Shown: in pieces, positions 16,724 to 59,832 of the stretch
How positions within the stretch are numbered: position 1 is the stretch's first letter
How the letters are laid out: each line of letters opens with the position of its first letter
NCBI GenBank assembly: GCA_050302075.1
Contig: JBNLAH010000003.1
Span: 128,001-192,000, forward strand
Direction of reading: 5' to 3'
Source: Parachlamydiales bacterium
Lineage (GTDB): Bacteria; Chlamydiota; Chlamydiia; Chlamydiales; SM23-39
Length of the DNA stretch: 64,000 nucleotides
Translations under genes and position numbers: made by a program
The notes under the pieces: generated by a model
Database searches by the model: none
The model's input: only the letters and a program-made list of their open reading frames with translations
What the model was told of the DNA's origin: nothing

Positions 16724-17795
16724 CTAAGTAATGCCTCAAATAGTTCAATGTGACTTCTGGCTGCTGTTTCCCAAGAAAATTTCTTAACTTGCTTAAACCC
16801 TTGATCAATTATTTTTTCTCTTAAATTTTGATCAAAAGCTATTCTACGCATTTGGGCTGCAAGTTCAAAGTAATTTTTTGAATCAAAATAAATAATTGCA
16901 TCCTCTCCCACTTCTGGGATACTTGCAGAAGTAGAACCAATAACAGGACAACCCATTGCCATACTCTCCAAAATTGGCAATCCAAAACCTTCATAAAGGG
17001 AAGGAAAAATAAAGGACCTTGCATTTTTGTAGAATAAAGGGAGTTCTTCATTCGTTATGTCACCTAAAAAGTGAATGTTTTTTCTAGACTTTACACTAGA
17101 TATTATTGAGTCAGAATTTATCAACCCCTTTGATTTCCCAATAATTACTAAATCAAAGTTGTCTTTAAGTAAGTCATAGGCATCTATCAATACCTTAAGG
17201 TTTTTATGAGGCTTTAAATTACCTACAAACAAAAAAAAAGGCTTTTTAATGTTATATTTCTGAAAAATATCTACATCTTCTGGCTTGCTCAGCTGAAAAC
17301 AATTGAAATTCACTGCGCAGTTTATAACATGGATCTTATCCGAAGAGACTCTTAAGTATCTTATAATTTCACTTTTCGAGAACTCAGAATCTGTAATAAT
17401 AACTTCAGATTTTTTAACTGCCTGCTTGTAAACAAGCTTTGCATAGGCTTTTTCCTTCCACTTTAAAGTATCAAAGAAAGCTAGATGAAAAACATCATGT
17501 ATTGTAACAATCCTTTTTTTTGCTCTTACTGGAAAGAGCGGAACATTAAAATGCGGTGACCAAAAAATGTCGTGCTTTATGACTTTCGAAAAAAAAACTG
17601 TTCTTTTATTGAGTAAATTGAATGATTTGATTCTATTAATGACTCTTGGGGTATCCAGGAAAAGCTTGAACTGTCTTCTGGAGCTATAATAATTTCAGGA
17701 GCATATTTTTCAACAATGAAGGGAAGGATGTTGCTTAAGTAAGTTCCTATCCCAGAACTTCTTATCATTCTTGCATCAATACAGATTTTTTTCAT
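16720..17795 (-). pseudogene. GT4 glycosyltransferase frameshifted at a T9 tract (17589-17597)
   Basis: N-terminus [16 protein letters not shown] stops at 17577. Adding one T gives DIFWSPHFNVP..VTIHDVFH in an open frame continuous with the C-terminal EGFGLPILE domain. Confidence 0.85.
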
Positions 17796-18829
17796 CAAAC
17801 TAAACAAGTTTTAGAATTTGAAAATAGCTTCAAATCTTGACCCATCATGATCTTAACTAGCTCTTCCATCGAAGTCTGCGCTTTCCATCCAAGTAAATCA
17901 TAAGCCTTACTAGCATCACCAATAAGATAATCAACTTCAGTTGGCCTGAAAAATTCCGAAGAAACAACTACTAGTTCCTTACCTGTCTTGCTATCAATTC
18001 CTTTTTCATCAAGTCCTTTGCCTTCCCAAAATATTTCGATTCCAACTTCTTTAAAGGCAAGCTCTACAAACTTTCTAACTGTATGAGTCTTTCCTGTGGC
18101 CAAAACAAAATCTTCTGGTTTGTCATGCTGCAAAATCCTCCACATGCCTTCAACAAAGTCTTTGGCATATCCCCAGTCCCTTTTAGCATCTAAGTTACCA
18201 AGCTCCAATTTACTTTGTAGACCATTCGCTATTTTAGCAGCAGAAAGGGTGATTTTTCTCGTTACAAAATTTTCGCCTCTACGCGGGCTTTCATGATTAA
18301 ACAAAATTCCGTTACATGCAAAAAGACCATATGCCTCCCGGTAATTTTTTACTGACCAAAAAGCATACAACTTACTGACAGCATAGGGTGATCTCGGATA
18401 AAATGGGGTTGTCTCTTTTTGAACTTTTTCTTGAACTTTGCCATAAAGCTCTGATGTCGATGCCTGATAAAACTTGATATTCTTATTGCAAGACATAATA
18501 GCTTCTAACAAACGAATAATAGCAATTCCATTTACATCACCACAATATTCCGGCATCTGAAACGAAGATTTTACATGACTCATGGCTGCTAAGTTATAAA
18601 TCTCATCTGGGACAACTTCATGTACCACTTTTTTTATACTAGAAAAATCAGATAGATCACCTTCATGTAAAATTAATTTATTATTTTCTAAAAGGTGCTG
18701 AATCCTACTAAAATTCAATGTTGAAGTTCTTCTAATAAATCCATGAACTTCATAGTTTTTCTCTAATAGCAAATCAGCTAAATATGATCCGTCTTGACCT
18801 GTTATCCCTGTAATTAACGCTTTTTTCAT
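17795..18829 (-). CDS. gmd: GDP-mannose 4,6-dehydratase
   Basis: [39 protein letters not shown] and RDWGYA motifs. Confidence 0.97.
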
Positions 18830-18859
18830 GTTTTTTTCTTTGTTTTTGTGAGAAAAGAA

Positions 18860-18880
18860 CTCCCGGTAAGATACCGGGAG
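18860..18880 (-). terminator. Intrinsic terminator after the small acidic protein gene
   Basis: Perfect 9-bp stem CTCCCGGTA/TACCGGGAG, followed by TTCTTTTCT on the minus strand. Confidence 0.8.
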
Positions 18881-18894
18881 GTTGGAGGAGACAT

Positions 18895-19095
18895 TTATTC
18901 TTTGTCTTGATCTGCTCCGCAGTCACTGCATTCTTGATCTGTGTTATCTGCTACTTCAACTTCTGCTGCTGCAGGCTCAGCGTCGTTTGCAGAAACTTCT
19001 ACTTCAGAGTTGTCTGCAATCTCGTCATTTGCATAAACATTAAAGGCAGTTAAGAAAGATAAACCGAACAAGAAATACATTGCTTTTTTTAACAT
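18895..19095 (-). CDS. Small secreted acidic protein (66 aa)
   Basis: Signal peptide ending VYA, GAGG RBS, own promoter-like motif and terminator. Confidence 0.75.
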
Positions 19096-19137
19096 CTAAA
19101 ACCTCATTTTAAAAAAATTTATTAAAGTCGCAGCCTC

Positions 19138-19167
19138 ACTTTAAAACTTGATGTGGCATGAAGTCAA
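19138..19167 (-). promoter_or_regulatory. Putative sigma66/70-type promoter
   Basis: TTGACT-N18-TAAAGT, ending about 40 bp upstream of the ATG at 19095. Confidence 0.45.
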
Positions 19168-19175
19168 TACTTTTT

Positions 19176-19841
19176 CTAGCAATAATTTTTAATGGTTCTT
19201 AGCAGCTTTCTGAAATCCTTTTGATCTAACTTTCCAGTGTTAGTGTTTTGAGGGCTAGGATGATAAGAACAAAATAATGTCGGCATATTTTCAAACTCAT
19301 AATGCTTACCATGAATAAATTTTACGCCTTTTACATTAATATTTTTTTCTCTTAAAAATCTTAAATATGCTCCGTGTGCCAACTTGCCTAAAACCAGAAC
19401 TCTGTTAACATTTTTCAAAATAGAAAATTCAGAAACAAGATATGGAAAGCAGTTTGTTTCTTCATTTTTATTTGGCATATTTTTAGGGGGAACGCATTTT
19501 ACCGCAGCACTCATATAAATGTTATATAGCTTAAGTCCATCATCTAAATAGTCAGAGTTTGGCTGGTTGCACATCTCTTCTAAATAAAGTGATCCCATTA
19601 AGAAATCACCAGACAAATCACCTGTAAAAATCCGGCCAGTCCTATTACCACCATGAGCTGATGGTGCTAGACCAATTAAAAATATCTCAGCATCCGGATT
19701 TCCATATCCTGGAACCGGCTTCTTCCAATACTGTTCTTGGCTATAGGCTTTCTTAGGCTCAATGTTTTCTCGGAAATCTACCAGCCTAGGACATTTCCGA
19801 CATTTGCAAACAATATCATTTAATGTTTTTAAATTTTTCAA
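19176..19841 (-). CDS. Uracil-DNA glycosylase family 5 (UdgB-like, Fe-S)
   Basis: CRKCPRL, GLAPSAHGGNRTGRIFTGD, VKCVPP and SYHPSPQN motifs. Confidence 0.9.
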   Translation of the reverse strand: MKNLKTLNDIVCKCRKCPRLVDFRENIEPKKAYSQEQYWKKPVPGYGNPDAEIFLIGLAPSAHGGNRTGRIFTGDLSGDFLMGSLYLEEMCNQPNSDYLDDGLKLYNIYMSAAVKCVPPKNMPNKNEETNCFPYLVSEFSILKNVNRVLVLGKLAHGAYLRFLREKNINVKGVKFIHGKHYEFENMPTLFCSYHPSPQNTNTGKLDQKDFRKLLRTIKNYC

Positions 19842-21019
19842 TTCTCAAATGCCTTTTTAGCTATAGTCCTGCCAATCGAAAATGCAGCTGTTGCTGCTGG
19901 CGACGGAGCATTTACAACATGCAAAACATTATCGTCTTTTTCGAAAATAAAATCATCTGGAAGAGTCCCATCATTTAAAACTACCTGAGCTCTAATACCA
20001 CTTGAAGCTTTTTTCAAATCTGCTTTTTGAATTATCGGAACCAATTTCTGAAGGTCTTTTAAAAATACGTGCTTAAAATGTGATCGATAAAGCTCATATA
20101 AGCCAACCTTCCAATATCTTTTAGCCATTTTCCAAAAACCCGGATGTGTAAGCGTATCTTTTAGGTCTTTGAATGAAACATCTTTTTTATTATAGCCTTC
20201 TCTAGCGTATGCTAAAACCGCATTCGGCCCAGCTTCTAACCTTCCATCAATCATCTTTGTTAAGTGAACCCCTAAAAAAGGAAATCTGGGATCTTTGACA
20301 GGATAGACCAAACCATTTATCAATTCCTGTTTGTTTGCCACTTCAAAATATTCACCTCTAAAAGGAACTATCCGAAATCCCTTCTTTTTAGATTTTATCA
20401 ATCTATCTGAAAACAAACCCGCACAATTAATAACTTTATCAGCTTTAAGAGACCCATTTTCAGTTTCAACTAGTACTCCTTTTTTAGATGAACTAATCTT
20501 GACTACCTTTTGGTTGTAAGTTATTTCAGATTGGCCGCTATCTAGTATTTCGGCTATTTTTTCTGCGACATCCTTAAAACTTATAACCATAACATCTGGT
20601 AACCAAATTGCCTTAACACCAATAACATTTGGCTCAATTTCCTTTAATCTAGCAGAGTCAATTAGTTCAATTTTACCAATTTTATTTTCTTTTCCTCTTC
20701 TAAATAGCTCTTCGAGCAAAGTAACCTGAGCTGATCTACTTGCCACAATTACTTTACCAAGCCTCTTGGTTGCAATTTTATGCTCATGAGCAAAATCCAC
20801 TAATTCTTCTCTCCCTTGAATACAATTGATAGCTTTTAAACTATTTGGCTTATAGTAGATTCCAGAATGTATAACCCCACTATTGCGAGAAGTTTGATGT
20901 AAAGCGGCTTTACATTCCTTTTCCAAAATCCTAATTCTATAGTCTGGATTGAGATTGAGTAATTGATATGCAGTAGCAAGGCCGACTATTCCAGCCCCAA
21001 CAATGATTATATCAGTCAT
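19838..21019 (-). CDS. lhgO: L-2-hydroxyglutarate oxidase family FAD oxidoreductase
   Basis: GAGIVG, HQTSRNSGVIHSGIYY, PFRGEY, PFLGVH, GIRAQ and NAPSPAATA motifs. Confidence 0.88.
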   Translation of the reverse strand: MTDIIIVGAGIVGLATAYQLLNLNPDYRIRILEKECKAALHQTSRNSGVIHSGIYYKPNSLKAINCIQGREELVDFAHEHKIATKRLGKVIVASRSAQVTLLEELFRRGKENKIGKIELIDSARLKEIEPNVIGVKAIWLPDVMVISFKDVAEKIAEILDSGQSEITYNQKVVKISSSKKGVLVETENGSLKADKVINCAGLFSDRLIKSKKKGFRIVPFRGEYFEVANKQELINGLVYPVKDPRFPFLGVHLTKMIDGRLEAGPNAVLAYAREGYNKKDVSFKDLKDTLTHPGFWKMAKRYWKVGLYELYRSHFKHVFLKDLQKLVPIIQKADLKKASSGIRAQVVLNDGTLPDDFIFEKDDNVLHVVNAPSPAATAAFSIGRTIAKKAFEN

Positions 21020-21939
21020 TTCCTTAACAATATCTCTTGATTTTCTAAAAACCAGTTAACTGTCTCTTTTAGACCAGTTATCAAAGGTTTCAACTCATAG
21101 CTTTTTAAAAGATCTTTTATTCTACCAATTGATAAAACTTTAGACTTGGCACCAACATATTTGGTCTCATCAAAAATGATCTTATTAAAGTCATAGCCAA
21201 CAACGTCGCAAATTACTGATGCAAATTCTCTTATCGAATGCTCTTTTCCAGAGCCCAAATTCACTTCAATATTGCTGGCTTTTTTGCTAAGTTCAATAAG
21301 GTTATGAACGAAATCTTCAACATGGATCAATTCTCTTTTTTGATATCCATCACCCCACAAAACTACTGGCTCTTTATATAAATGACCTCTCAGGATTTTT
21401 CGGATCAAGTCAAAAATAAAATGCATCTGCCTTCCATCTAAATGATAAGAGGGGCCATAGAGGGTAGATGGAATCACATAAAGATAGTTCAGTTTATATT
21501 GCTTATTTATTGCTTTAAGACCTGCTAAAAGCATCCTTTTCGTCATCGCATAAGTATATAATGAACTAATTGGAGTACCTTGCATGTAGTTATCTTCTGT
21601 AAGCGGAAAGCTTGGATCATATGAGCAACTAGTTCCCATGCACATACACTTTGCTTGCGGTTGCTTTTCTCTCCAATAAGATAAGACATTAGTGTTGATC
21701 TTCTGATTAATAATCCATTGATCTGCCGGATGCCAAAGACAAAAATCTCCGGCTTGGGTCCATGCTGCTAAATGATATATTTGGTCAAACAAAAGACCAT
21801 TAAAGATGTCTAATGAAGATGCAACAGTCAAATCAGCATCTTTAGATGAAATTCCAATAACTGAATGACCCTCATCTTTTAAAGCTTTTCCTAAAAATTT
21901 ACCTAAAAACCCGCTAGCACCCGTAATAAGTATCTTCAT
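21016..21939 (-). CDS. GDP-L-fucose-synthase-like epimerase/reductase (SDR)
   Basis: TGASGFLG, GTSCSY, YAMTK and WGDGYQKRE motifs. Confidence 0.75.
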   Translation of the reverse strand: MKILITGASGFLGKFLGKALKDEGHSVIGISSKDADLTVASSLDIFNGLLFDQIYHLAAWTQAGDFCLWHPADQWIINQKINTNVLSYWREKQPQAKCMCMGTSCSYDPSFPLTEDNYMQGTPISSLYTYAMTKRMLLAGLKAINKQYKLNYLYVIPSTLYGPSYHLDGRQMHFIFDLIRKILRGHLYKEPVVLWGDGYQKRELIHVEDFVHNLIELSKKASNIEVNLGSGKEHSIREFASVICDVVGYDFNKIIFDETKYVGAKSKVLSIGRIKDLLKSYELKPLITGLKETVNWFLENQEILLRK

Positions 21940-23141
21940 AAAAGAGCCCTCGGATTAATTGGAAAGTAAAATTCAACACCCTTATCAATCAATTGAGCAT
22001 TGTTCTTCAAAATCTCTTCTTTGAAGTTCCAAGCTAACACAAAATAAACATCAGGTAGCTCTGTCAGTTCCTTTTCAATTAAAATGGGTAAATGCATCCC
22101 CGGAGAAAAAAGATCCCTTCTAAGTTCATTTTTCTCGACTAAGCACTCGATATAATTTTTGTTAATATTCAAATAATTTAAAAGTGTATTTCCCTTTACA
22201 GGAGCGCCCATTCCAAATACTTTTTTGTTTTCTTTCCTGCATCGCTCAAGAAAATCTAAGTTTCTCTGTTTAACTATTTCCACGTTTTTAGCAAACTCAT
22301 AATAGGTCTCAAGTTCATTTGCGCGAGAATTTCTTTCTTCTTTCATAAGCTGATTCAAATTATCGCTTTTTTGCCTTCTACCAATATGAGATACATATGC
22401 AATTATTGAGCCTCCATGAATAGGCGATAGTTTTGCATCAAAGACTTCCATACCATGAATGTTAAGGAGATAGTTAAGGGTTTCTATGTTATAGTATAAA
22501 AGATGTTCATGATATATTTGGTCAAAGGCAACATTGTCCATAATCTTTCGCATATAAAGAAACTGAACTACAAATACTCCATCAGATTTTAAATATTTTT
22601 TAATTGCAGCAGTTACAGAATGCAACTCCTCCAAATGGAAAAAAACTCCTGAAGCATTTATCACATCAAAACTTTGATTAATTTTTTTTGCTGTATCAAG
22701 ATTATAAAAAGCATTAAGGGTATTAACGTTATTTTCATTTGCAATTTTAGCAATATTTGAGGATGGCTCGACGCCTAGAACTTCATATCCTAGTTTCTGA
22801 TAACACTTCAACTGAGTTCCATCATTTGAACCAATATCGAGAACATTTTTCACAGATTTGTCTGAGAAAAACTTTTGATCTACTTCTTGAGCTGTCTTAT
22901 AAAAATGATCATATAATGATTTAGTGATACCGGATAGGTAGGTATGCTTGCTATAAACTACTTCTTTTTTAATTGTATAGTCTAGCTGAGCTGTTTTGCA
23001 CCTCAAACAAACAATAACCCTTAAGGGGTAAAAAGACTCTTTCCCAACTTCTTCCTTAGTTAAAAAATTTAAGGCCAATGGCTGGTCTTTTAAATCTACA
23101 ACAAGCTCAAAATCTGAACCGTCACACACTCTACATTTCAT
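21936..23141 (-). CDS. NDP-sugar C-methyltransferase
   Basis: N-terminal Zn ribbon (CRVC..CLRC), DIGSNDG, FDQIYHEH, IHGGS, GAPVKGNT and LAWNF motifs. Confidence 0.88.
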   Translation of the reverse strand: MKCRVCDGSDFELVVDLKDQPLALNFLTKEEVGKESFYPLRVIVCLRCKTAQLDYTIKKEVVYSKHTYLSGITKSLYDHFYKTAQEVDQKFFSDKSVKNVLDIGSNDGTQLKCYQKLGYEVLGVEPSSNIAKIANENNVNTLNAFYNLDTAKKINQSFDVINASGVFFHLEELHSVTAAIKKYLKSDGVFVVQFLYMRKIMDNVAFDQIYHEHLLYYNIETLNYLLNIHGMEVFDAKLSPIHGGSIIAYVSHIGRRQKSDNLNQLMKEERNSRANELETYYEFAKNVEIVKQRNLDFLERCRKENKKVFGMGAPVKGNTLLNYLNINKNYIECLVEKNELRRDLFSPGMHLPILIEKELTELPDVYFVLAWNFKEEILKNNAQLIDKGVEFYFPINPRALL

Positions 23142-23250
23142 GATCTACCCCATACTTTTTTTGTGAGTGCATTCTACAAAAAAAATTTTAAAAAGTGTTT
23201 TTTCTTTTTTAAAAAAAATTATAGTCTAGGTCAAAAAATTGCGTTGACTA

Positions 23251-24258
23251 ATGATAATAATCTCCAGAACTCCTGTAAGAATCAGTTTTTTTGGTGGCGG
23301 AACCGACTATCCAGATTACTTTTCTCGAAAAAAAGGTGCCGTGCTTGGTACTGCCATAAAAAAGTTCATTTATATTAGTGTCAACCAAATGCTCCAAATG
23401 GGAAGCTTTTTCGATCATAAAATTAGAGTGGGCTATTCGAAAACAGAGCTAGTACAAGAAGCATCAGAAATTGCTCACCCAAGCGTAAGAGAGTGTCTAA
23501 AACATCATAATTTCAATTCAAACTTGGATATTCATATATTTTCTGACCTGCCTGCAAAAACCGGGTTAGGTTCATCTTCTTCTTTTACAGTAGGTTTTTT
23601 AAATGCCTTATATGCAGTAAGAGGAAAGAGAGCATCCAAGCAAAAGCTTGCAGAAGAAGCATGCTTTATCGAACAAAAAAAAATAAAAGAACACGTAGGA
23701 TCACAAGATCAGTTTCATGCCGCATACGGAGGGCTGAATATAATCGAGTTTACTCAAGATGAGATAAAAGCCAGACCAGTTTTAATCTCTAAAGAAAAAA
23801 AAGAGATTTTTCAAAATAGTATAATGGTCTTTTATACAGGGCTAACCAGGTTTGCAAGCGAAATTGCAAAAGAACAAATAGATAAAACTAAAACACTCTC
23901 CAATGATGTTTATTTAGCAAAAATGTATGACATGGTCTTTGAGGCTGAAAAGATATTTGCAACGTGTAAAGCAGAAGAATTAATCCAGCAAATAGGTTCT
24001 CTTTTACATGCTAGCTGGCTCTTGAAAAAAAAACTCTCGCAAAAAATTACAACTTCATTAATTGACAAATACTATGAAATTGCAATTGGAGCAGGTGCCA
24101 TCGGGGGAAAACTTTGCGGAGCAGGTAGTGGTGGTTTTCTTGCTTTGGTAGTTCCTCCAGAATGCCAACCTAAAGTAAGAAATGCCTTAAAAGATTTACT
24201 AGAAGTCCCTTTTCAAATTGAATCAGACGGTAGCACAATTATTTACATGAAAGATTAA
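23251..24258 (+). CDS. hddA: D-glycero-D-manno-heptose-7-phosphate kinase (GHMP family)
   Basis: TPVRISFFGGGTD, GLGSSSS, VGSQDQ and GGKLCGAGSGGF motifs. Confidence 0.85.
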   Translation: MIIISRTPVRISFFGGGTDYPDYFSRKKGAVLGTAIKKFIYISVNQMLQMGSFFDHKIRVGYSKTELVQEASEIAHPSVRECLKHHNFNSNLDIHIFSDLPAKTGLGSSSSFTVGFLNALYAVRGKRASKQKLAEEACFIEQKKIKEHVGSQDQFHAAYGGLNIIEFTQDEIKARPVLISKEKKEIFQNSIMVFYTGLTRFASEIAKEQIDKTKTLSNDVYLAKMYDMVFEAEKIFATCKAEELIQQIGSLLHASWLLKKKLSQKITTSLIDKYYEIAIGAGAIGGKLCGAGSGGFLALVVPPECQPKVRNALKDLLEVPFQIESDGSTIIYMKD

Positions 24259-24260
24259 TT

Positions 24261-26985
<2,725 letters not shown>

Positions 26986-26986
26986 C

Positions 26987-27856
26987 TTATCTCACTCTCT
27001 TTGTAAGTTTGAATCTTGTGGCATTTTTTAAAACTTGTGATAAGAAGCCCCATCTTTTTGGATGAGAAAGCAAATATTTAAAAAGAGATCTTCCTTGTTG
27101 GTACAAAACACCTGATTTTTTGAAGAAATCTTGAAACTCTTCAGGCTGCTTTTTCAACAAGTCGAACAAACTATCGTAAGCAGATTCTTCATTTTTTCTA
27201 GAATTGCTATAAGAGCCCGATGTAACCCTAAATCCTGCCAAAGGCATAGGAAGGTAGGCAACTGGATATTTAGAGGCAATTTGGTAGTTTAAAAACCAAT
27301 CTGACATCCATTTTAATCCTCCATTCAATATCCCAAACTCTTTTAGATGCTTTTTTCGATAAAGACTTGTATTAGTCGGAATCCAAAATAAATGTTTTTT
27401 TATAAAATAAATCAATTCATTTGGATAAATAATTCTTTGCTTTTGCTCTTTTAATAGAGGCTTCACTTGGAGATTGTCAACATCTTCATCAAATGTACAA
27501 AAGTCAGATGTGCAAATAGCCACATTTGGATTATTTTCTAAAGATTCAATCATAATTTCTAAAAAATTTGGCCTAATGTAATCATCTGCAGAACAAAAAG
27601 CTAAATAATCTCCGCATGCCATTTCTATTCCGCGATTAACCGACTGAATCGGTCCTAAGTTTTTTTCATTTTTGAGAACTTTAAGATTACTATGAATGTT
27701 TGAATAATTTGATAACACTTCATGGCTGTTATCATCCGAAGCATCGTCAATTACAATTATCTCACTTGGGGACAGGCTCTGAGAAAAAATAGCAGGTAGC
27801 GAGGTTTGCAAATAGTTAGCATGGTTGTAGCTTGGCAAAATAATTGATACTGTCAA
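26987..27856 (-). CDS. GT2 glycosyltransferase
   Basis: SIILPSYN, IDDASDD, NRG and SADD motifs; TTG start. Confidence 0.9.
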   Translation of the reverse strand: MTVSIILPSYNHANYLQTSLPAIFSQSLSPSEIIVIDDASDDNSHEVLSNYSNIHSNLKVLKNEKNLGPIQSVNRGIEMACGDYLAFCSADDYIRPNFLEIMIESLENNPNVAICTSDFCTFDEDVDNLQVKPLLKEQKQRIIYPNELIYFIKKHLFWIPTNTSLYRKKHLKEFGILNGGLKWMSDWFLNYQIASKYPVAYLPMPLAGFRVTSGSYSNSRKNEESAYDSLFDLLKKQPEEFQDFFKKSGVLYQQGRSLFKYLLSHPKRWGFLSQVLKNATRFKLTKRVR

Positions 27857-27860
27857 AATT

Positions 27861-28706
27861 TTAGACTTTCATTACTTTTTTAGGTTTTCTCTGAAAAATA
27901 AATTTAGGAAGAATCCTTTTAAGTTTTTTCTTAAGAGGATCAGGTAAGTGCTTAGAAATTCTTTGCTTAAAAGAGCTCTTTTTCTGCTCTTTTTTATTCC
28001 AAGTATTTTGGTAGTAAAACTGTTGAGGAGTCTTTATTAAATTATAATGCACCTTTTTTTGAGCCACAAAGAAAATACCCAGCAATCTTTTGCCAAACCC
28101 TCCAAAAGATAAAGACTGCAATGACCCTGATCCATATTCGTAAACATCCCAAAGTCTTTTTGGACTGCTAAAAGAATACTCAAAAATGTAGGGAGTCTTA
28201 ATATCAAAATCATTTGCCTTATAGAAATCCATAAAGACAGTGGGAGAAAACATATAAAACCCATGATCCACATGATTATGAGATGGTGATAAATGAATAA
28301 TTGATCCACCAGATTTTAGCATCAAACTAATATTTTCTAACACTCTAGGAAAATTGAAGATATGCTCAGAAGTGCCTCCATCAAAAATATAATCGTATTT
28401 TTGATGATATTCTTCTGGAATAGGTAAATTCATGTCCCAAATAATATCTGCATTTTCATAATCTGAATAATCAATGCTGTGAACTTCATCAAATCCAAGT
28501 AACTTAAAAAACTCAACATCACTAACTTGTTTCTTATCAGAAATATTTGGCGCTTTTATGAGAACTTTTTCTTTTTCGGCATACTTGTAAATCTCTTTCC
28601 AGGATAGAAAAATATCTTGCTTTCCGAGCTGTAGTATACTTCCAGAGAATTTTTTCTTTTTGCTCTCTTTTAGCAGTAAACGATACGTGCCTCTAGCTAT
28701 ACCCAA
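27861..28706 (-). CDS. Class I SAM methyltransferase-like protein
   Basis: LQLGKQ, IDYSDYE, DMNLP, DGGTSEHIFN and HGFYMFSP motifs. Confidence 0.65.
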   Translation of the reverse strand: MGIARGTYRLLLKESKKKKFSGSILQLGKQDIFLSWKEIYKYAEKEKVLIKAPNISDKKQVSDVEFFKLLGFDEVHSIDYSDYENADIIWDMNLPIPEEYHQKYDYIFDGGTSEHIFNFPRVLENISLMLKSGGSIIHLSPSHNHVDHGFYMFSPTVFMDFYKANDFDIKTPYIFEYSFSSPKRLWDVYEYGSGSLQSLSFGGFGKRLLGIFFVAQKKVHYNLIKTPQQFYYQNTWNKKEQKKSSFKQRISKHLPDPLKKKLKRILPKFIFQRKPKKVMKV

Positions 28707-28735
28707 AGATTTGCCTATTATAAAAATATTTAATA

Positions 28736-30043
28736 CTAAACATTGTCTTTATTGAAGAATAGCTTATTTTTTTTGATGGCTGACTGAATAATATCATCGA
28801 TCTTTTCAGCCCTATGAGTAGCTGTATGAGACTTCAATGTTCTTTGTTGACCTTTTTCTGCTATCGCTTTTAAAAGTGATTCATTTTTTAATAAGTAATT
28901 AACTTTCTCGATGCACTCAGCTGTTGATGAATACGTTACAACTTCTGAGTCCTCCTCAAACAATTGATTTAAATTTTCACTTTTTTCTGTAATCAAGCAA
29001 CTTCCAACTCCCGTTGCTTGAAACATCCGAATATTATCTGAAAAGTTTCCAGCAGCTAAGCTATGTCTATTTAATGTAATCTTTGAGCTAGCCATTGTTT
29101 GATACATTTCCAAACCAAAAACCGGTTTAAAGCATCGGTCTTTGTATTTCTTACTAAGAGGCTTCAATGGATAGAAAATATCTATCCCTTTTAAACATTC
29201 TTTTTCTTTTTTTATTTCTTCTACTAAGTTTGCAAACTGTCTTGGTATTTGAAAACTTTCAAAATATTTAAAAATTTTATCGTTTTTACAGAGTAGTCTT
29301 TTAAGAAAATTGCGAAAATCTTGCTTTGCTTTACTGCTTAATTTATGCCCAACTTCATCAACCCAAAGCTTAATCTCTGTTCTTTTCAAAAGCTCCGTCA
29401 GCATGATGTATCTTGGCAAATGAGCACTGCCATATCCATAACCTGAAGTCCCAATGAAAGTTAACTCATGAAACTTCTGATTTTCTGAAAGCTTTTGTAA
29501 AATTCTTTCATCAAAAAAATGATAAACCAAATGTGGTTTAATACTATAACCTTCCAATTTAGCTTTCAAAACAGGTGAGCCGACTAAAACAATGTCTGCA
29601 ACTGATATCTTTTTAAGGCTTTCATCGTCAAGTCCAGGATATCCACGGAAAACAACTATCTTTTTCACAAAAGAAAAATGCTTTTTTATATTGCAAAAAT
29701 CATCGAATGCTAAAGCATGGACATCCTGAAAATATAAAATATCTGGCTTACTTTTTCTTATTTGAGCAAATAATACATCTCTTCTCCAAGTGTCCTTTGA
29801 GAATTTAATACTATTTTCCTCAGCCCATTTTTTTTGCAGCAATTTATAATCATATATAATTTCATCAGCTTCTTGCCCAATGTTGTTCATGCCATAAGAA
29901 AAACTATCCGAATAGACATGGAAATTGCTAAAGATCTCTTTTTTTAACTCTTCATAAGAACTGCCTAATAGTGTTTTATCTAAATGCCTCATTAATGAGA
30001 CATAGTGAAGGCCTACCACTCTTAATATTTTATAAGATTTCAT
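28736..30043 (-). CDS. CgeB-like (Glyco_trans_1_2) glycosyltransferase
   Basis: VFGLEMY, SKITLNRH, NIRMFQATGVG and GQQRTLKSHT motifs. Confidence 0.8.
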   Translation of the reverse strand: MKSYKILRVVGLHYVSLMRHLDKTLLGSSYEELKKEIFSNFHVYSDSFSYGMNNIGQEADEIIYDYKLLQKKWAEENSIKFSKDTWRRDVLFAQIRKSKPDILYFQDVHALAFDDFCNIKKHFSFVKKIVVFRGYPGLDDESLKKISVADIVLVGSPVLKAKLEGYSIKPHLVYHFFDERILQKLSENQKFHELTFIGTSGYGYGSAHLPRYIMLTELLKRTEIKLWVDEVGHKLSSKAKQDFRNFLKRLLCKNDKIFKYFESFQIPRQFANLVEEIKKEKECLKGIDIFYPLKPLSKKYKDRCFKPVFGLEMYQTMASSKITLNRHSLAAGNFSDNIRMFQATGVGSCLITEKSENLNQLFEEDSEVVTYSSTAECIEKVNYLLKNESLLKAIAEKGQQRTLKSHTATHRAEKIDDIIQSAIKKNKLFFNKDNV

Positions 30044-30078: not shown

Positions 30079-31017
30079 TTATAACTTTGTTATTGGTACA
30101 TTATCTGGTCCTTTTAAACCAGATCTTTTAGCTGCAATCAATCCATCACATGAGCAGCTTTGAGCTGGAGTATGTTCAGCTATTATATGAAAACCATGAT
30201 CCTTTAAGAATTTTAAACATTTTCTATGAAGAAGGTCAGTGTGTGTCGAAATGAAGAAAAAATCGATTTTTGACTCTGAAATCGATTTTTTGCAGGTCTG
30301 AAGCATATCAAATTCTGCACTCTGTATATCGGCATGCAAGATATGAACATGATTAATATTGTTTGATGCTAAAAACTGGTCAATATGAATCCGAGGAATA
30401 TTAACTTCATGTTTAATATCAGAGTCATATTTATTACCAATATAACCATGGACAAAAGTTCCTTCTTTATTATTCAATTCAAAGTTCCTCATACCAGTCA
30501 ATAGATACTCATACTTAGGCTCAATCATGTAATTTTTTGCATTTTTAACGCTGTTAGCAAACCATAGCGAGTAATATGCCCAATAACTACCAAGTTCAAT
30601 CATTGTGCTTCCAGGGGAAATATATTTAAGTACCTCATAAAATACTTTTTCTTCTTGCGGTTCATGATGCCCTCGCAGTGCATAAATTATATCCGTCATC
30701 CAGTTGGTCGCCGAACAATAGTAACAATCCTTATAAATTTTAATTCCGTTATGCATGACTTGGTATTCTCCATTTTCATCGGAAATAATTTCTCCTGCAT
30801 TAACAACCTTTGGGATGTAATCAGCATCAGGACATTCTATGGTTGATATAACCCTGGGATATTGGTAATAAGCATTTGTAATTTTAAATGAATCCTGACT
30901 TATAGATTTAATAAACCTTTCTTTATGAGATTTAATATCTTCGTTAATTGGATCCGAATAAATATAATTTACACACAATAAATTAATGATAAAAAATATA
31001 CTTTTAAATGTTTTCAT
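30079..31017 (-). CDS. FkbM-like methyltransferase with signal peptide
   Basis: GHHEPQEE, ELGSYWAYYS, HADIQSAE and FISTH motifs; N-terminal K-hydrophobic-IYS. Confidence 0.75.
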   Translation of the reverse strand: MKTFKSIFFIINLLCVNYIYSDPINEDIKSHKERFIKSISQDSFKITNAYYQYPRVISTIECPDADYIPKVVNAGEIISDENGEYQVMHNGIKIYKDCYYCSATNWMTDIIYALRGHHEPQEEKVFYEVLKYISPGSTMIELGSYWAYYSLWFANSVKNAKNYMIEPKYEYLLTGMRNFELNNKEGTFVHGYIGNKYDSDIKHEVNIPRIHIDQFLASNNINHVHILHADIQSAEFDMLQTCKKSISESKIDFFFISTHTDLLHRKCLKFLKDHGFHIIAEHTPAQSCSCDGLIAAKRSGLKGPDNVPITKL

Positions 31018-31037
31018 AAGAATAAACCTGTGCTTGA

Positions 31038-31835
31038 TTAATCAACTTTTATATAATTTGGTCCGGGAATACCTAAACGCTTCGCCAAAATTAATCCATC
31101 TTTAATTTCTTTCGACGGGAGGTATTCGACAAGGATCTGAAAATTTTTATCTGTAAAAAAATTTAAGCAATTTTCATGCTTTTTAAAACTATGAGTAGCA
31201 ATAAAAAAATAATCTATTTTGTTTTGCTCAATCGCCTCTACGCTTGAAGTTAATACGTCAAGCTCACTTCCTTGTGAATCTATAAATAAAACATCAATGT
31301 GATCAATGTCGTTTTGCACAATAAACCAATCCATTTGCATATGGATAGACCCATGTGAATGAGAGATCTTTTTTTCATAATCAAATCCAAAATAGAAGCG
31401 GTAGAAATATCCTTTTTTTTGATTCAGTTCAAAGTTTTTTATTCCACATCTTAGATGATCAGGATGCGGTTCTAAAATAAAATTACTCGGATTATCAACT
31501 ACATGGGAAAACAAAAGTGAATAATATGACCAATATGCGCCCACTTCAAGCATTGTAGCTTTAGAAGGAATATATTTTAAAACTTCGTAAAAAATATCAT
31601 CAACTCGTTGCTGCCATTTTCCTGTAAGAATAATTTGATTAATTTTTTCCTTAGATAAAGCTCCATAAGAACAGTAGGTACTTAACTTAATTCCATTTGG
31701 CAAAATTAAGTATTTATCAGTTTCATTTAGAATTACTTGTTCTGGCTCAGGTGTGCTATTTGCTTTTGCATAATTAGGATCCATAAAACTTACAACTAAG
31801 TAAATAAAAAAAGGTATTTTTATCAACAAATTCAT
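31038..31835 (-). CDS. FkbM-like methyltransferase with signal peptide (paralog of 30079-31017)
   Basis: EVGAYWSYYS, IDSQGSE and FIATH motifs; signal ends AKA. ATG at 31835 preferred over 31850. Confidence 0.7.
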   Translation of the reverse strand: MNLLIKIPFFIYLVVSFMDPNYAKANSTPEPEQVILNETDKYLILPNGIKLSTYCSYGALSKEKINQIILTGKWQQRVDDIFYEVLKYIPSKATMLEVGAYWSYYSLLFSHVVDNPSNFILEPHPDHLRCGIKNFELNQKKGYFYRFYFGFDYEKKISHSHGSIHMQMDWFIVQNDIDHIDVLFIDSQGSELDVLTSSVEAIEQNKIDYFFIATHSFKKHENCLNFFTDKNFQILVEYLPSKEIKDGLILAKRLGIPGPNYIKVD

Positions 31836-31836
31836 G

Positions 31837-32829
31837 TTAATCTCTCTCATAAACTATATTATCCATAAATAAATATCCTCTCCCTAATTCATCATATTCC
31901 CAATGATATTTAGTAGGATAAATCTTCAAATCAAAATCACAGATTAAATTGATAATTGAAGTAAAAGTACTTTTTCCTGTGAAAACCACATTTTTAAAAT
32001 TTTGAAATGAGAAAAAATCATCTAAAGCATATTTATGAAAACCGGTTCCATCTTTTCGATAGTCAAATATGATATTGCTTAAATTTACTTGTTCCTTGAT
32101 GCGCTTTACTAAGTTCTCTATCAAAGGTTCATCAGTAAAAATGAAAACATATATTGGCTGATGATCATGAAGCCTTGAAAATTCAATAATTTGATCAATA
32201 TAATATTGTTCAGGAGGATGAGTTAAAGGAAAAATGGTATCTACATAAACAATCTCTTTTGGCCTGAGATATCTATCACGATTATATTGCAGATTAAATA
32301 CTTGAACTGATCCCAATGATGCATCCCATCCACCTCCCTTTCTTATATGAACCGCCAAAGACAATACGTCTTTAGGCGGATGAATAAGTTTTAAAGGTGT
32401 CCTTGGAGCTATTCTCTTTCGGATATGCTTTAAAAAGCCTGGATTCGATTTTACCTGCTGTACAAAAGCATCTGAAAAATACGTTAAAAAAACAAATTCA
32501 AGTAATCTATGCTTTTTTCGATTCATTTTCTCAGAACAAATAGGAACTTTTCTGACGTCTCTTAAAACTGTTTTCTGCCAGATGCGATTATTATTAATAT
32601 TTGGGAGGTGTTCATCCATTACTGAACACATTAAATAATCTGACTTATCAAAAGGCTGGTAATAAAATTTTAAATTATTTTCATAGGCAACCCATTGAGC
32701 ATGAATATATGCGATAAGGTCATTTCCCATTCTTCCATTTCCCAAAGGTCTACTTGTTACAAAAACATTTGATAAAAGATTATTGTTTATAGAAACGACG
32801 AACAAAACGAGCAAAAAGCATTTTTTCAT
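31837..32829 (-). CDS. GT11-like (alpha-1,2-fucosyltransferase-like) protein with signal peptide
   Basis: GRMGN, AVHIRKG, YY, IFTD and STF motifs occur in GT11 order. Confidence 0.65.
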   Translation of the reverse strand: MKKCFLLVLFVVSINNNLLSNVFVTSRPLGNGRMGNDLIAYIHAQWVAYENNLKFYYQPFDKSDYLMCSVMDEHLPNINNNRIWQKTVLRDVRKVPICSEKMNRKKHRLLEFVFLTYFSDAFVQQVKSNPGFLKHIRKRIAPRTPLKLIHPPKDVLSLAVHIRKGGGWDASLGSVQVFNLQYNRDRYLRPKEIVYVDTIFPLTHPPEQYYIDQIIEFSRLHDHQPIYVFIFTDEPLIENLVKRIKEQVNLSNIIFDYRKDGTGFHKYALDDFFSFQNFKNVVFTGKSTFTSIINLICDFDLKIYPTKYHWEYDELGRGYLFMDNIVYERD

Positions 32830-33515
32830 AATGCTCTCCTAGAAACATAAATTTCATCGCATGCAAGTGATGCAACTTTTAAATAATTTTTAGATTTTAA
32901 AAAAAGCTCGATGTCTTTTGTTTGATAATTATTCTCCACTGTAATGACATCTATTTCATATTTATCAAAATCAATGCTCTTCAGTATTTCAAACTCTCCG
33001 CCCTCAGTATCTATACTTAAAAAATCGATGTGATAAATACCGTTTTCTTGGAGTACTTCATTTAATGGAAGGCAAGTAACTAAAATTTCATGAGATGAGC
33101 ATCCGTATTTCTTTAATTCATAATTAATACGTTCAACGTGGCGAGGATCATATTTACCAATGATCCCACTTAGTCCTTCTATGACTCCATCTATGCAAAG
33201 AAAAGGGACATTTTCTTCATAATCAGGAGCTATGCAAGCATTTAAACAGATACAATTACGATTGCTTTGAAGAAGCTTAAATGTATTAGGTAACGGCTCT
33301 ATGCACAAACCTTTCCAACCTAATTCTTTTTCGAAGAAATAAGAATTACTTCCTAAAACTCCATCATTTGCCCCAATATCAACAAATACTCCGTTTCGTT
33401 TATTATTAAAAAAATGGTCATTCACATAACGATCTTGTCCAAATTGGGAATAATACTTTGCACTTATAGAAAAGCAAAAAACACAAAAAATAATTAAAAA
33501 AAAATTAATTCTCAT
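32826..33515 (-). CDS. FkbM family methyltransferase with signal peptide
   Basis: YSQFGQD, DIGANDG..SNS, IEP, SIDTEGGE and TVENN motifs; signal ends ISA. Confidence 0.88.
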   Translation of the reverse strand: MRINFFLIIFCVFCFSISAKYYSQFGQDRYVNDHFFNNKRNGVFVDIGANDGVLGSNSYFFEKELGWKGLCIEPLPNTFKLLQSNRNCICLNACIAPDYEENVPFLCIDGVIEGLSGIIGKYDPRHVERINYELKKYGCSSHEILVTCLPLNEVLQENGIYHIDFLSIDTEGGEFEILKSIDFDKYEIDVITVENNYQTKDIELFLKSKNYLKVASLACDEIYVSRRAL

Positions 33516-34569
33516 AACTACCTATCTGTTCTTGGATCCATGGATATAGCTTTCTAAGACCTTCTTCAAGGCTGCTTGATGGTTTCCAACCAAGTTCTTT
33601 AAAAATTAAGCTGTTGTCCGAATTCCTGCCTTGAACTCCCTCTGGTCCCTCCACATTTATTATTTCAATTTTCTTTTCAGCAATTTCTGAAATTAGTCTG
33701 GTTAAATTATTAATTGAAATCATTTCTTCAGAGCCTAAATTAAGTATTGGCAATTTTTTTTCTGAGCTCATAATTTGCCTTATTCCTTCAACACACTCAT
33801 CAATGTATAAGAATGAACGAGTTTGATTGCCGCTTCCCCAAATTTCTATTTCTGAACTTTGAACTGATTTGGCTACTTTTCGACATATTGCAGCAGGTGC
33901 TTTTTCTCTGCCTCCTTCCCAAGTTCCTAGTGGACCAAAAATATTGTGAAATCTAGCTATTCGAATGTCCATTCCATAATCATTTGCATAAGCTTCGTAT
34001 AGACGCTCACTAAAAAGTTTTTCCCAGCCATATTCGGTGTCTGGTTCAGCTGGGTATGCTGAATCTTCTACACAGAGAGGGTTATTAGGATCTAATTGAT
34101 TTCGTTCCGGGTAAACACAAGCAGAAGAAGAAAAAAACACTTTTCCTACTTTAGCTTTTCTGCATTCTTCCAAAACATGTAAGTTAATCAGTGCAGAATC
34201 ATGCATAATTTCCGCATCATGAAATGATATAAATCCCATTCCTCCCATGTTTGCCGCAAGCTGCAACACTTCATCAAATGGGAAAAGTTCTCCATTAATA
34301 CTAAGCGATTTTTTTGCATCATTAGCTAACCTGAGATCCGCTATTACAAACTCATCAGCTTCAGTTTGCTCAAATTCAGGATATTTTAAATCTACTCCTC
34401 GAACCCAATAACCTTCTTTTTTATAGCGCTTTACTAAATGATGCCCTATAAATCCTCCGGCCCCACATATAACAGCTGTTTTCTTACCAGAAAGTTCTTC
34501 TTTTGTAGGTGACGCAAATAAGTTAATTTGCACAAAGAAAATGAAATACATAAATAAACTTTTATACAT
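33505..34569 (-). CDS. GDP-mannose 3,5-epimerase-like SDR with signal peptide
   Basis: GAGGFIG, LAANMGGMGFI, SSSACVYP, YGWEKL, RFHNIFGP and GREKAPAA motifs. ATG at 34569 has a GGAG RBS. Confidence 0.87.
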   Translation of the reverse strand: MYKSLFMYFIFFVQINLFASPTKEELSGKKTAVICGAGGFIGHHLVKRYKKEGYWVRGVDLKYPEFEQTEADEFVIADLRLANDAKKSLSINGELFPFDEVLQLAANMGGMGFISFHDAEIMHDSALINLHVLEECRKAKVGKVFFSSSACVYPERNQLDPNNPLCVEDSAYPAEPDTEYGWEKLFSERLYEAYANDYGMDIRIARFHNIFGPLGTWEGGREKAPAAICRKVAKSVQSSEIEIWGSGNQTRSFLYIDECVEGIRQIMSSEKKLPILNLGSEEMISINNLTRLISEIAEKKIEIINVEGPEGVQGRNSDNSLIFKELGWKPSSSLEEGLRKLYPWIQEQIGSYEN

Positions 34570-34582
34570 AAAAAAAATTCTC

Positions 34583-35752
34583 CTAATACTTGGTTTCATA
34601 GTTAAAAATATCACCAAATTTTTCTCGAACACGTTCAATTATTGGTTCAAAATCCCTAATAGTTACGCTCTTACCCCTCTCTACAAGCTTTTTAGCAACA
34701 ACTAGTTTTTGAGAGGCATCGATCATTGGAACTGGACAGTTTTCTTTATAAGCGACATTTTCAAATACATAGTCAGAAAGATCTTTATTGGTTAATTCTT
34801 GAGCCATATATTCAGCATGCTGGTTATTGACTAAATCAGTTGTTTCAAAAAATATTGGGTCAATTTCTTTTAATGCAGAATATTCGCCTAAAGCCTTGTT
34901 ATCCCTAGGAAAACATGGTCCGCCAAACCCAAACCCTGGTAAAATACACTTTTCCCCAATTCTTCTGTCTTTTCCAATTGCATGCAAAATATCAAATTTA
35001 TTTGCCCCCAATGTCTTATCGGCAATATCTCCTATTAAATTTGCAAAAGAAATCTTCGCTGTTATAAAGCAATTAAGAGCTAATTTTGTAATTTCAGCAC
35101 TTTCCACTGACATACGGGCTATATAAGGGGAATTCTTGCAAAGCTGTTTATATATTTTTTCTAACAATGCTCCTGACTCATTTGATCCTTCTCCAATTAG
35201 AACCATATCAGGATTGCAAAGACCGTTTACAATCTCTCCTTGTGCTATAAAAGGAGGGTTATAGCAGATTGTAGTTGAAGGACAGTCTGCCAGCAAATAA
35301 CGCGCATATTCTTTTATGTATCCAGGCTTTATTGTTGAGCAAATAACAATCTTTTTATTTGCTGGAGAATATAAATTTATCTTTGAAAGCAATTCGCTTA
35401 GAAGAGAAAAATCATATCCATCTGTTCCATGTGTAGTAGTGATAGTAATAAAACATATGTCTGAAAAATCTAGACCTTCTTTTAGTGACGTCGTAGCCTT
35501 AAATCTTTGAGAAGATTCGAGAAGGCCATTTATGAAAGGCTCAGTTGAATCAAAAGATTTATCATTAAGTTGGTCTACATATTCTGGCAAAACATCTACA
35601 CCTAAAACATCATATCCTGCTTTTTCCAAGCAAAGTGCAAATGATAAACCAAGTCTTCCAACACCAATTACAGTGATATTTTCACTAAAGCATTTATTCG
35701 GACAAAAGCCCAGAATGAAAAGTACTATTAATTTTCCTAAATAATTTTTCAT
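34583..35752 (-). CDS. UDP-glucose/GDP-mannose dehydrogenase family protein with signal peptide
   Basis: GVGRLG, EITKLALN and GFGGPCFPRD motifs. ATG at 35752 follows a GAGGGG RBS. Confidence 0.85.
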   Translation of the reverse strand: MKNYLGKLIVLFILGFCPNKCFSENITVIGVGRLGLSFALCLEKAGYDVLGVDVLPEYVDQLNDKSFDSTEPFINGLLESSQRFKATTSLKEGLDFSDICFITITTTHGTDGYDFSLLSELLSKINLYSPANKKIVICSTIKPGYIKEYARYLLADCPSTTICYNPPFIAQGEIVNGLCNPDMVLIGEGSNESGALLEKIYKQLCKNSPYIARMSVESAEITKLALNCFITAKISFANLIGDIADKTLGANKFDILHAIGKDRRIGEKCILPGFGFGGPCFPRDNKALGEYSALKEIDPIFFETTDLVNNQHAEYMAQELTNKDLSDYVFENVAYKENCPVPMIDASQKLVVAKKLVERGKSVTIRDFEPIIERVREKFGDIFNYETKY

Positions 35753-41804: not shown

Positions 41805-42566
41805 TTATTGTTTAATGAAAAAAGCCTGGCCGGTAGGGATAGGTATTAAAACTTCTTGCTTGTCTCTCATGAAATTATCAATCGCCTTTCTAGCTCCTAT
41901 GCACATTGGGAAACCATAATCATCAAAAAGAACTACAGCTCCTTTTACTAGTCTAGGATAGACAAACTCTAAAGAATCATAGGTTGCTTGAAACAAGTCA
42001 ACGTCGATATGCACAAATGAAAATCTTTTTTCCTCCAGATCTTGTAACACGTTCGGAATCCAGCCTTTTACTAAGTGAATTTTGCATTTATGCTTTGACA
42101 AGTAGTCGTAAATTGTATTTTTACTAAATCCTTTTAGTCCACCTTTCTTAAAAAATGGACTATTTGTTCTTACATCAATATCATCTTCATTAGGTTCAGC
42201 TAAACCTTCAAAGCTATCTACACCATAAATTTCTTTATTTGAACAGTCATATAGATCTAGAACAGAAGCAAATATATCAATGCTTTTGCCTTTAAATACT
42301 CCAAGCTCAATAAAATCTCCCTCAGGGATTTTAGCTGCTAGCTTAGATAGTTTATATTGTAAGTATCTACCTTCTTTAAATAAAAGATTCTGGTTTTCTA
42401 CAGGGAAGCTATTATCAATTCTTAAAAATTCTTCATCACAAGTCCATGGACAAAACAAAGGATTAGCATAACTTTGAAATTTTCTATAAGACTTATCTTT
42501 CGATATTGCTTGATTGTTAGATAGAAAAAACAAACATAAGATAAAAACTAATATTTTTTTCATCAT
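41805..42566 (-). CDS. TylF/MycF/NovP-family sugar O-methyltransferase with signal peptide
   Basis: GDFIELGVFKG, DSFEGL, KGW, HIDVDL and FDDYG motifs. Confidence 0.87.
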   Translation of the reverse strand: MMKKILVFILCLFFLSNNQAISKDKSYRKFQSYANPLFCPWTCDEEFLRIDNSFPVENQNLLFKEGRYLQYKLSKLAAKIPEGDFIELGVFKGKSIDIFASVLDLYDCSNKEIYGVDSFEGLAEPNEDDIDVRTNSPFFKKGGLKGFSKNTIYDYLSKHKCKIHLVKGWIPNVLQDLEEKRFSFVHIDVDLFQATYDSLEFVYPRLVKGAVVLFDDYGFPMCIGARKAIDNFMRDKQEVLIPIPTGQAFFIKQ

Positions 42567-55550: not shown

Positions 55551-55583
55551 AAATATCCTCATAAATGTAAAGCGAGGTTTACA

Positions 55584-57699: not shown

Positions 57700-57700
57700 A

Positions 57701-59673: not shown

Positions 59674-59832
59674 ATATATACCTATTTTTTGAAGTCCTAT
59701 AAAAAAACTTTTTTGAATTATCCGCAAGATAATTGTTTTTAAAACCTAGAGGTCAGTTTCAAGCTCTAAAAAATGGATTTTTATTGGACGAACAGAAGAA
59801 AAAGTACTTGATGACAAATGAGGATAAAAATT

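Follow-up and report, generated by a model that had tools for sequence, protein, structure and literature searches.

Six adjacent glycan-enzyme genes with signal-peptide-like leaders in a Parachlamydiales bacterium: a candidate nucleotide-sugar pathway outside the cytoplasm

In the textbook division of labor, bacterial reactions that consume nucleotide sugars, NAD(P) and S-adenosylmethionine (SAM) take place in the cytoplasm, while glycan building outside it draws on lipid-linked donors. A 64,000-nucleotide stretch of the genome of a Parachlamydiales bacterium (contig JBNLAH010000003.1, positions 128,001 to 192,000; hereafter the window) appears to depart from this rule. It contains a module of six genes, encoding a nucleoside diphosphate (NDP)-sugar dehydrogenase (DH), a GDP-mannose 3,5-epimerase (GME), an FkbM-family methyltransferase (FkbM1), a glycosyltransferase (GT) and two FkbM-like methyltransferases (FkbM2 and FkbM3), and each predicted protein begins with a leader resembling a signal peptide. 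Are these enzymes exported, and if so, where would they work and on whose substrates?

Leaders on six adjacent glycan enzymes

An earlier note on this DNA had described six tightly packed minus-strand genes with leaders of 19-25 residues, and this description was borne out. All six open reading frames (ORFs) are co-directional, with intergenic gaps of 13, -11, -4, 1 and 20 nt from DH to FkbM3, and the leaders measure 23 (DH), 19 (GME), 19 (FkbM1), 20 (GT), 25 (FkbM2, counted from Met6 with the start at 31835) and 21 (FkbM3) residues. In each, an n-region with a net charge of +1 or +2 leads into a core of 10-15 apolar residues, and the presumed cleavage site has a small residue; the stretch after the core is neutral or acidic in five leaders and +1 in GT. 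The same profile was found in 24 other proteins of the genome identified by Pfam as exported (mean n-region charge +1.75, median core 13). Judged from the sequence, the leaders would fit substrates of the Sec translocon and signal peptidase I (SPI), for which we looked for a basic n-region, an apolar core of 7-15 residues, a small residue at -1 and a length of 15-30 residues. Our leader-scoring heuristic recognized all of them but FkbM3, which has an atypical -3 residue and scored zero; the FkbM3 leader therefore rests on its homologs, of which 105 of 120 have a hydrophobic N-terminus and whose named matches belong to Dependentiae/Babeliales and Chlamydiota.

That the true starts might lie downstream of the leaders could be excluded for four of the proteins. 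DH has no ATG, GTG or TTG between residues 1 and 42, and its GxGxxG motif begins at residue 30; GME has no start codon after residue 13 that would give an intact enzyme; in FkbM1 the next possible codon (31) lies past a conserved N-terminal motif; and in GT Met34 falls within the conserved GRMGND motif. For FkbM2 an internal Met23 is still a possible start, and Met6 is our presumed choice. A longer, TTG-initiated GME frame was also rejected, since an AGGAG resembling a ribosome-binding site precedes 34569 and a 1-nt deletion at 34570, just upstream of the ATG, breaks that frame alone in two related assemblies. As for other export routes, a twin-arginine motif was present in 0/81 DH leaders and 0/6 module leaders, TatC was not found in the 96% complete genome, and lipobox-like sequences occurred in only 2/81 DH leaders, which argues against lipoprotein processing by signal peptidase II.

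The earlier note had also allowed that the leaders might be uncleaved anchors, and their features speak against this. Among homologs, cores of at least 18 residues are rare (GME 1/93, GT 3/129, FkbM3 2/104) and the positive charge precedes the core, a combination that points to N-in export rather than a reverse anchor. Of the 81 DH leaders, whose median length is 21, 60 end in A, S or G.

The run of six leaders alone is not beyond chance. The heuristic passes 23.5% of 1488 ORFs, and about 0.25 runs of six would be expected, with FkbM3 counted by hand. The weight of the observation lies instead in the classes of enzyme involved and in the conservation of their leaders. Among the best 120 homologs listed for DH and for GME, the shape of the leader is kept in 81 and 92, respectively, although the leader sequences themselves are unrelated. 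(A heuristic DH figure of 112/120 was discarded because the Rossmann strand of leaderless DHs was mis-scored; such DHs were read by eye.) A leader is likewise found in 129 of 150 GT homologs and, for FkbM1, in 24 of the 27 Chlamydiota loci that could be scored, with 3 more loci unparsed, and in the close strain P0241 the GT leader is altered only conservatively. In 32 DH/GME pairs presumed to come from the same genome because the longest contigs have identical lengths, both partners carry a leader in 19, neither does in 9, and the 4 discordant pairs have doubtful start calls; these pairs are kin and thus not independent. At one related locus (L020, 8927-11107) GME and DH are fused behind a single leader. 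Together, leader conservation, the co-variation of DH with GME and this fusion indicate that the leader is a property of the module, and with the tree and the leaderless controls described below they uphold, at the level of sequence, the earlier proposal that the module is exported as a unit. There is strong support for reading the six leaders as cleavable Sec/SPI signal peptides and for folding of the proteins beyond the bacterial cytoplasm, and export overall appears very probable.

The module lies in a genome of 1.84 Mb (96.2% complete), on a 271-kb contig that also bears topA-SWIB and uvrB, and groundwater metagenome contigs span it at roughly 96-99% identity. Together with YscJ, chlamydial OMP families and homologs assigned to Chlamydiota, the SWIB-bearing topoisomerase I identifies the bacterium as an environmental chlamydia. 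A leaderless glycan cluster begins 35 nt beyond it on the same strand (Table 1). The earlier statement that neighboring glycan enzymes lack leaders holds for 17 of the window's 19 remaining glycan genes, which scored below the threshold; the exceptions, a TylF-family O-methyltransferase and a GT17 glycosyltransferase, are probably members of the same exported toolkit. A scan of promoters and terminators gave no signal (32 promoter-like sites against 32.3 expected).

Elsewhere in the window, positions 47425-59727 hold a second leaderless sugar cluster with a split transketolase, a Zn dehydrogenase, an APH-like kinase, three methyltransferases, SDRs, an HldE-like protein and a SIS protein. Positions 43273-45281 and 59872-61942 hold four short ORFs, paralogs whose N-termini are nearly the same, as well as two 323-residue paralogs, with 0 Pfam matches.

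Table 1. Position of the module genes and of other features. Coordinates refer to the window, except those prefixed with C, which come from the wider genome.
Feature	Position	Strand	Leader	Remarks
DH, NDP-sugar dehydrogenase	34583..35752	-	35684-35752	UDP-Glc/GDP-Man DH family, 389 aa
GME, GDP-mannose 3,5-epimerase	33505..34569	-	34513-34569	354 aa
FkbM1, FkbM-family SAM methyltransferase	32826..33515	-	33459-33515	229 aa; PF05050 E 3.8e-23
GT, fucosyltransferase-fold GT-B glycosyltransferase	31837..32829	-	32770-32829	unnamed family, 330 aa; GDP-sugar donor presumed
FkbM2, FkbM-like methyltransferase	31038..31835	-	31761-31835	265 aa from Met6 of the listed ORF; PF05050 E 2.3e-5
FkbM3, FkbM-like methyltransferase	30079..31017	-	30955-31017	312 aa; PF05050 E 1.4e-9
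TylF-family O-methyltransferase	41805..42566	-	similar leader	leaderless paralog elsewhere in genome
GT17 glycosyltransferase	5729..6547	-	similar leader	
Cytoplasmic glycan cluster	14589..30043		leaderless	manC, GT4s, gmd, C-methyltransferase, GHMP kinase, nucleotidyltransferase, SDRs, GT2
Cofactor/GT set	C6:167596-168573, C2:116090-116452, C1:244123, C1:340418, C3:37427, C4:217578, C5:195023, C2:116495		leader-bearing	

Distribution and ancestry of the leader-bearing forms

The earlier note had suggested comparing homologs to see whether the leaders are restricted to endosymbiont lineages, and for DH this proved to be the case. A leader was present at 12/12 species-genome loci with at least 51% identity, all in a clade of Chlamydiota and Babelota, and at 0/62 scored loci of lower identity, which were mostly from Bacteroidota and mostly free-living (left out were the partial locus L038 and 5 control loci in which no ORF or motif could be read). 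The DH subfamily was detected in 13/400 sampled Chlamydiota genomes, with a leader on 10/14 copies, and in 12/201 sampled Babelota genomes, with a leader on 11/11 parsed copies (L189 left out); the genome G045 was left unscored. On a tree of 172 DH rows, from which 7 doubtful or truncated calls and about half of the control loci above L060 were omitted, the presence of the leader requires 3 changes, compared to a mean of 57 for shuffled labels, and a leaderless clade of 31 rows (support 95) is nested within leader-bearing chlamydial forms. As read from this tree, the simplest history would be a single gain of the leader followed by reversion to a cytoplasmic form.

Viral contigs hold closer DH relatives than Bacteroidota do, the top matches being to giant viruses at 45-51% identity. 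Of 78 scored viral loci, 76 are leaderless and the other two are apparent upstream mis-starts (2 further loci were left out). The subfamily is common in viral contigs (L251-L330; 561 confirmed stretches), and GME is found in the same locus in 29/78 scored cases. When the tree is rooted with an outgroup, sequences from giant-virus metagenome-assembled genomes (MAGs) join the intracellular clade with support of 97, and the alternative was rejected only marginally, with p 0.045 in the approximately unbiased (AU) test. This value concerns a group that was named after the tree was seen, so the link to giant viruses is only moderate. A first AU test (p 3.8e-6) was set aside as confounded, the phage rows grouping with Bacteroidota. 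The predicted fold of GT also matches giant-virus fucosyltransferases.

The enzymes and where they would act

The enzymes themselves, with some reservations about DH, appear suited to a pathway starting from GDP-mannose. The best structural match of GME is the plant GDP-mannose 3,5-epimerase (GM35E; PDB 2c59, E 2.8e-91), and the eight key residues of the Arabidopsis enzyme, taken from PMC8787198, all have counterparts (S149, C151, Y180, K184, N209, K223, R251 and R315). By alignment, GME would thus keep the Ser-Tyr-Lys triad, the Cys/Lys acid-base pair, the acidifying Arg and the equivalents of Arg243 and Asn203, and we infer activity on GDP-mannose. DH scores 214 bits against TIGR03026 (cut-off 189.8), is closest in the PDB to the GDP-mannose 6-dehydrogenase AlgD (1mfz, E 2.6e-52), and keeps GxGxxG, Lys223, Cys280 and Asp284, the last three being invariant in 64 aligned rows. 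The earlier label 'GT11-like' for GT was loose: the protein has no Pfam match at E<=1e-4, and hence none to PF01531, no NCBIfam match, and its 96-row profile has no match among PDB sequences, while its structural model (predicted local distance difference test score 91.6) has a fucosyltransferase-type fold. The top Foldseek hits are FUT8, POFUT1 and plant FUT1 (E 2e-5 to 9e-4, TM-score 0.43-0.52), and its GT-B variant fold together with an HxR motif would place the modeled protein in the fucosyltransferase GT-B superfamily (GT11/23/37/65). The unnamed family has 1042 cluster representatives and the motifs GRMGND, FTDE and HIRKGG, the Arg of the last being the same in all of 96 rows; we take HxR to be a GDP-binding motif. 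Given that all of the fold matches use GDP-fucose, a GDP-L-sugar can fairly be proposed as the donor. All three FkbM proteins exceed the PF05050 cut-off and have SAM-binding motif I, only FkbM1 passes TIGR01444, and FkbM2 and FkbM3 are 38% identical; from family knowledge, we presume that they O-methylate sugars.

Based on these data, we favor a Leloir pathway located in the periplasm or inclusion lumen that draws on GDP-mannose, NAD and SAM from the host and acts on the bacterium's own surface, a reading to which we assign a probability of about 0.55. Host GDP-mannose, NAD and SAM would reach this space on their way inward. GME would convert GDP-D-mannose to GDP-L-galactose or L-gulose outside the cytoplasm, DH would use NAD+ to oxidize a GDP-hexose at C6, where its Pro in place of Glu (see below) may slow the reaction or change its end point, GT would transfer the L-sugar to an acceptor, and FkbM1-3 would O-methylate the glycan with SAM. 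Sec transports unfolded chains, so DH would have to pick up NAD outside, and with donors taken from the host outside the cytoplasm, neither donor import nor product flipping would be necessary. Compartment, acceptor and product are what we infer rather than observe. The acceptor would most likely belong to the bacterium's own surface, as a glycan or as proteins, because the module is embedded in a cytoplasmic surface-glycan cluster and leaderless chlamydial versions (L165 and L167) adjoin the same kinds of kinase, nucleotidyltransferase and gmd genes.

Related loci and the rest of the genome suggest that the module belongs to a larger set of leader-bearing enzymes. Among 103 ORFs scanned from nine related loci, the neighbors with leaders include GT2, GT6, GT10, GT11, NodZ-like and GT32 proteins and many methyltransferases. 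In a Babelota locus (L023, 15069-20386) Gmd, Fcl and Ugd all have leaders, and in another array (L016, 11134-12861 and 5225-6778) a leader precedes a GME-NUDIX fusion, and the array also includes genes for a TLC transporter and an ERG4/ERG24 protein. A census of 229 leader-positive ORFs of this genome (<=720 aa, outside the window) identified an adenylate kinase with a signal-peptide-like leader (C4:40444-41208) in addition to a leaderless second copy (C4:150321). The leader is shared by 22 of 28 parsed loci among the best 30 Chlamydiota matches, with three more slightly below threshold, and this type of kinase was matched in 80/150 genomes at E<=1e-55, the leader state having been read for the 28 loci only; a parallel is AK2, an enzyme of the intermembrane space of mitochondria. 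A leader-bearing copy alongside a leaderless paralog is also found for thioredoxin reductase (CAVC) and for thioredoxin (WCPPC), and further leader-bearing proteins include an SDR, two class I methyltransferases, a NUDIX protein, a GT2 and a true GT11. The genome also encodes LepB. MetK was not found in the 96% complete genome, implying that SAM must come from outside. About a dozen porin-like genes of the Legionella_OMP family (C1, C3, C6 and C7) were also observed, and their products are candidates for the passage of nucleotides across the outer membrane. Leader-bearing proteins at C8:11071-34078 include a match to an SU10 phage adaptor.

Extending the proposal beyond this module, we put forward, tentatively and as something possible but short of probable, that the periplasm or vacuole of environmental Chlamydiota and Babelota serves as a further metabolic compartment, one that equilibrates with the nucleotides of the host, a cross between an intermembrane space and a Golgi lumen, stocked with signal-peptide adenylate kinase, thioredoxin reductase, NDP-sugar enzymes, glycosyltransferases and methyltransferases, some of which also occur in giant viruses that infect the same protists. 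In such a compartment the Pro-type DH clade may pass its thioester to an acceptor other than water.

Several observations weigh against a host-fed pathway in the periplasm or lumen. DH has Pro at residue 167, where the NPEF motif of the family has a Glu that aligns with Glu161 of human UDP-glucose dehydrogenase; the human residue hydrolyzes the thioester, and the E161Q substitution lowers kcat 610-fold (PMC3265891), so that the activity of DH is uncertain. The earlier description of the pathway as complete was for this reason overstated, all the more as the module encodes no nucleotidyltransferase. The leaders were called, from sequence, by our own heuristic rather than a validated predictor, and the module is patchy in both phyla. 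manC, PGM/PMM, NadE (for NAD) and two EamA carriers are present, and with its own synthesis of GDP-mannose and NAD the bacterium would require host supply only for SAM; MetK, moreover, is present in 1/5 Babelota genomes tested. The analysis turned up neither an acceptor nor a priming enzyme, lipopolysaccharide may be missing from Babelota isolates (PMC6561590), and signal-peptide proteins of Waddlia, including a leader-bearing paralog of the nucleoside diphosphate kinase Ndk, have been found in the host cytosol (PMC7143554, PMC13318545). The sequence evidence does not discriminate between periplasm, inclusion lumen and host cytosol.

The Waddlia findings speak for the strongest rival, which we consider unlikely but far from negligible, namely that the type II secretion system (T2SS) or outer-membrane vesicles deliver the enzymes into the host cytosol, where, in the manner of giant-virus enzymes, they would draw on host GDP-mannose, NAD(P) and SAM to glycosylate and methylate host, inclusion-membrane or outer bacterial targets. 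The genome check that the earlier note had recommended turned up T2SS components (secretin and GspF), and the nearest outside relatives of DH are the leaderless giant-virus enzymes of the joint clade described above. Precedents exist, as 13/19 Waddlia proteins of the host cytosol have signal peptides (PMC7143554), exit of Ndk2 from the inclusion requires its leader (PMC13318545), and signal-peptide ankyrin proteins of Babela are predicted T2SS substrates (PMC4378268); in addition, the exported Fcl of the Babelota locus L023 needs NADPH. However, no host-targeting domains were seen by Pfam on the six proteins, the module is set in a surface-glycan cluster, and the 31-row chlamydial subclade runs the same chemistry without leaders, which is easier to understand if the product is bacterial.

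It is improbable, in our estimation, that the bacterium instead supplies the pathway itself in the manner of a Golgi, exporting its own GDP-mannose and NAD through EamA/DMT or TLC carriers and relying on the host for SAM alone. The supply genes named above and gmd, which are leaderless or were found by family search, would allow this, and a TLC gene lies within the L016 array beside the GME-NUDIX fusion. A search for transporters, likewise advised by the earlier note, turned up four full TLC nucleotide transporters and two EamA proteins, one of which weakly matches nucleotide-sugar transporter profiles (E 4.3e-4 and 1.3e-4), but both scores are under the curated cut-off and would be expected of any EamA protein, and the module in the window includes no transporter. 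Moreover, donor export would suit free-living bacteria too, yet none of the 62 scored control loci, mostly from such bacteria, carries the leader.

Finally, that the leaders are membrane tethers of cytoplasmic catalytic domains, or that the exported copies are decaying or non-catalytic, would agree with leader calls made from sequence alone, the lost catalytic Glu and the degenerate GxGxxG of a few DH homologs (L178 and P0097), but is very improbable given cores too short for anchors, charges indicative of N-in export, mostly small -1 residues, the 8/8 key residues of GME, and the fact that Pro or Ala at the catalytic Glu (45/75 leader-bearing versus 3/37 leaderless DH homologs with a readable motif) defines a conserved, almost wholly leader-bearing clade of 54 rows (support 97), which, with Cys280 and Lys223 invariant, does not look like decay.

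Relation to known systems

A conserved module with export-type leaders in two phyla of intracellular bacteria is real and, within the literature searched, undescribed: no paper was found on Sec-exported NDP-sugar enzymes in Chlamydiota or Babelota, in a search that lay outside supplements and most subscription papers. Sec-exported interconversion, transfer and methylation of nucleotide sugars would break the textbook compartment split, and would imply that host cofactors are present at working levels in the space around these bacteria. It may also provide a reason for many of the unexplained signal-peptide proteins of Chlamydiota and Babelota, which in Chromulinavorax account for 44% of genes (PMC6561590). 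In addition, the analysis brings to light a large unnamed transferase family, and the shared glycan genes would connect bacterial parasites and giant viruses of protists.

Glycans are built outside the cytoplasm in the lumen of the eukaryotic endoplasmic reticulum and Golgi, where anchored type II enzymes are fed by SLC35 carriers, and in the bacterial periplasm, where GT-C transferases use lipid-linked donors rather than nucleotide sugars. The module differs from both in consisting of soluble Leloir enzymes with short leaders of the cleavable type. Giant viruses (nucleocytoplasmic large DNA viruses) encode NDP-sugar enzymes, transferases and methyltransferases that draw on host pools. These are similar in kind, and the probable sister group of DH consists of giant-virus MAG sequences, but the viral enzymes are synthesized in the cytosol of the host and are leaderless (76/78), whereas the module comprises chromosomal bacterial genes whose products have leaders and an inner membrane to cross. 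The cytoplasmic DH and GME pair of Bacteroidota and other bacteria has the same families and the same pairing, but is leaderless and in most cases keeps the Glu; GM35E of Arabidopsis and Methylacidiphilum and AlgD also belong to these families (PMC8787198) and have no leaders. Waddlia chondrophila Ndk2 offers a parallel of a different sort, being a signal-peptide paralog that accompanies a leaderless copy and is detected outside the bacterium (PMC13318545, PMC7143554). It is a single kinase rather than a glycan pathway, and in the present genome a motif search found a single, leaderless Ndk.

The closest functional precedent is the lumenal glycogen of Chlamydia trachomatis, in which GlgA/B/X/P and MalQ reach the inclusion by type III secretion and build glycogen from a host nucleotide sugar supplied by host SLC35D2 (PMC4829429); the review PMC11046441 covers the glycogen case alone. 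The earlier note had invoked this precedent, and the logic is indeed shared, in that bacterial Leloir enzymes would likewise leave the bacterium's cytoplasm and act on a nucleotide sugar of the host. The route differs, as type III secretion involves no signal peptide, and the module, with its other enzyme families and Sec leaders, is not a member of that system. Lumenal glycogen is a storage glucan made with no NAD- or SAM-dependent step, whereas the module would combine Sec leaders with NDP-sugar interconversion, L-sugar transfer and methylation. Whether it is best regarded as a new category or as a variant of the logic of C. trachomatis lumenal glycogen is a close call.

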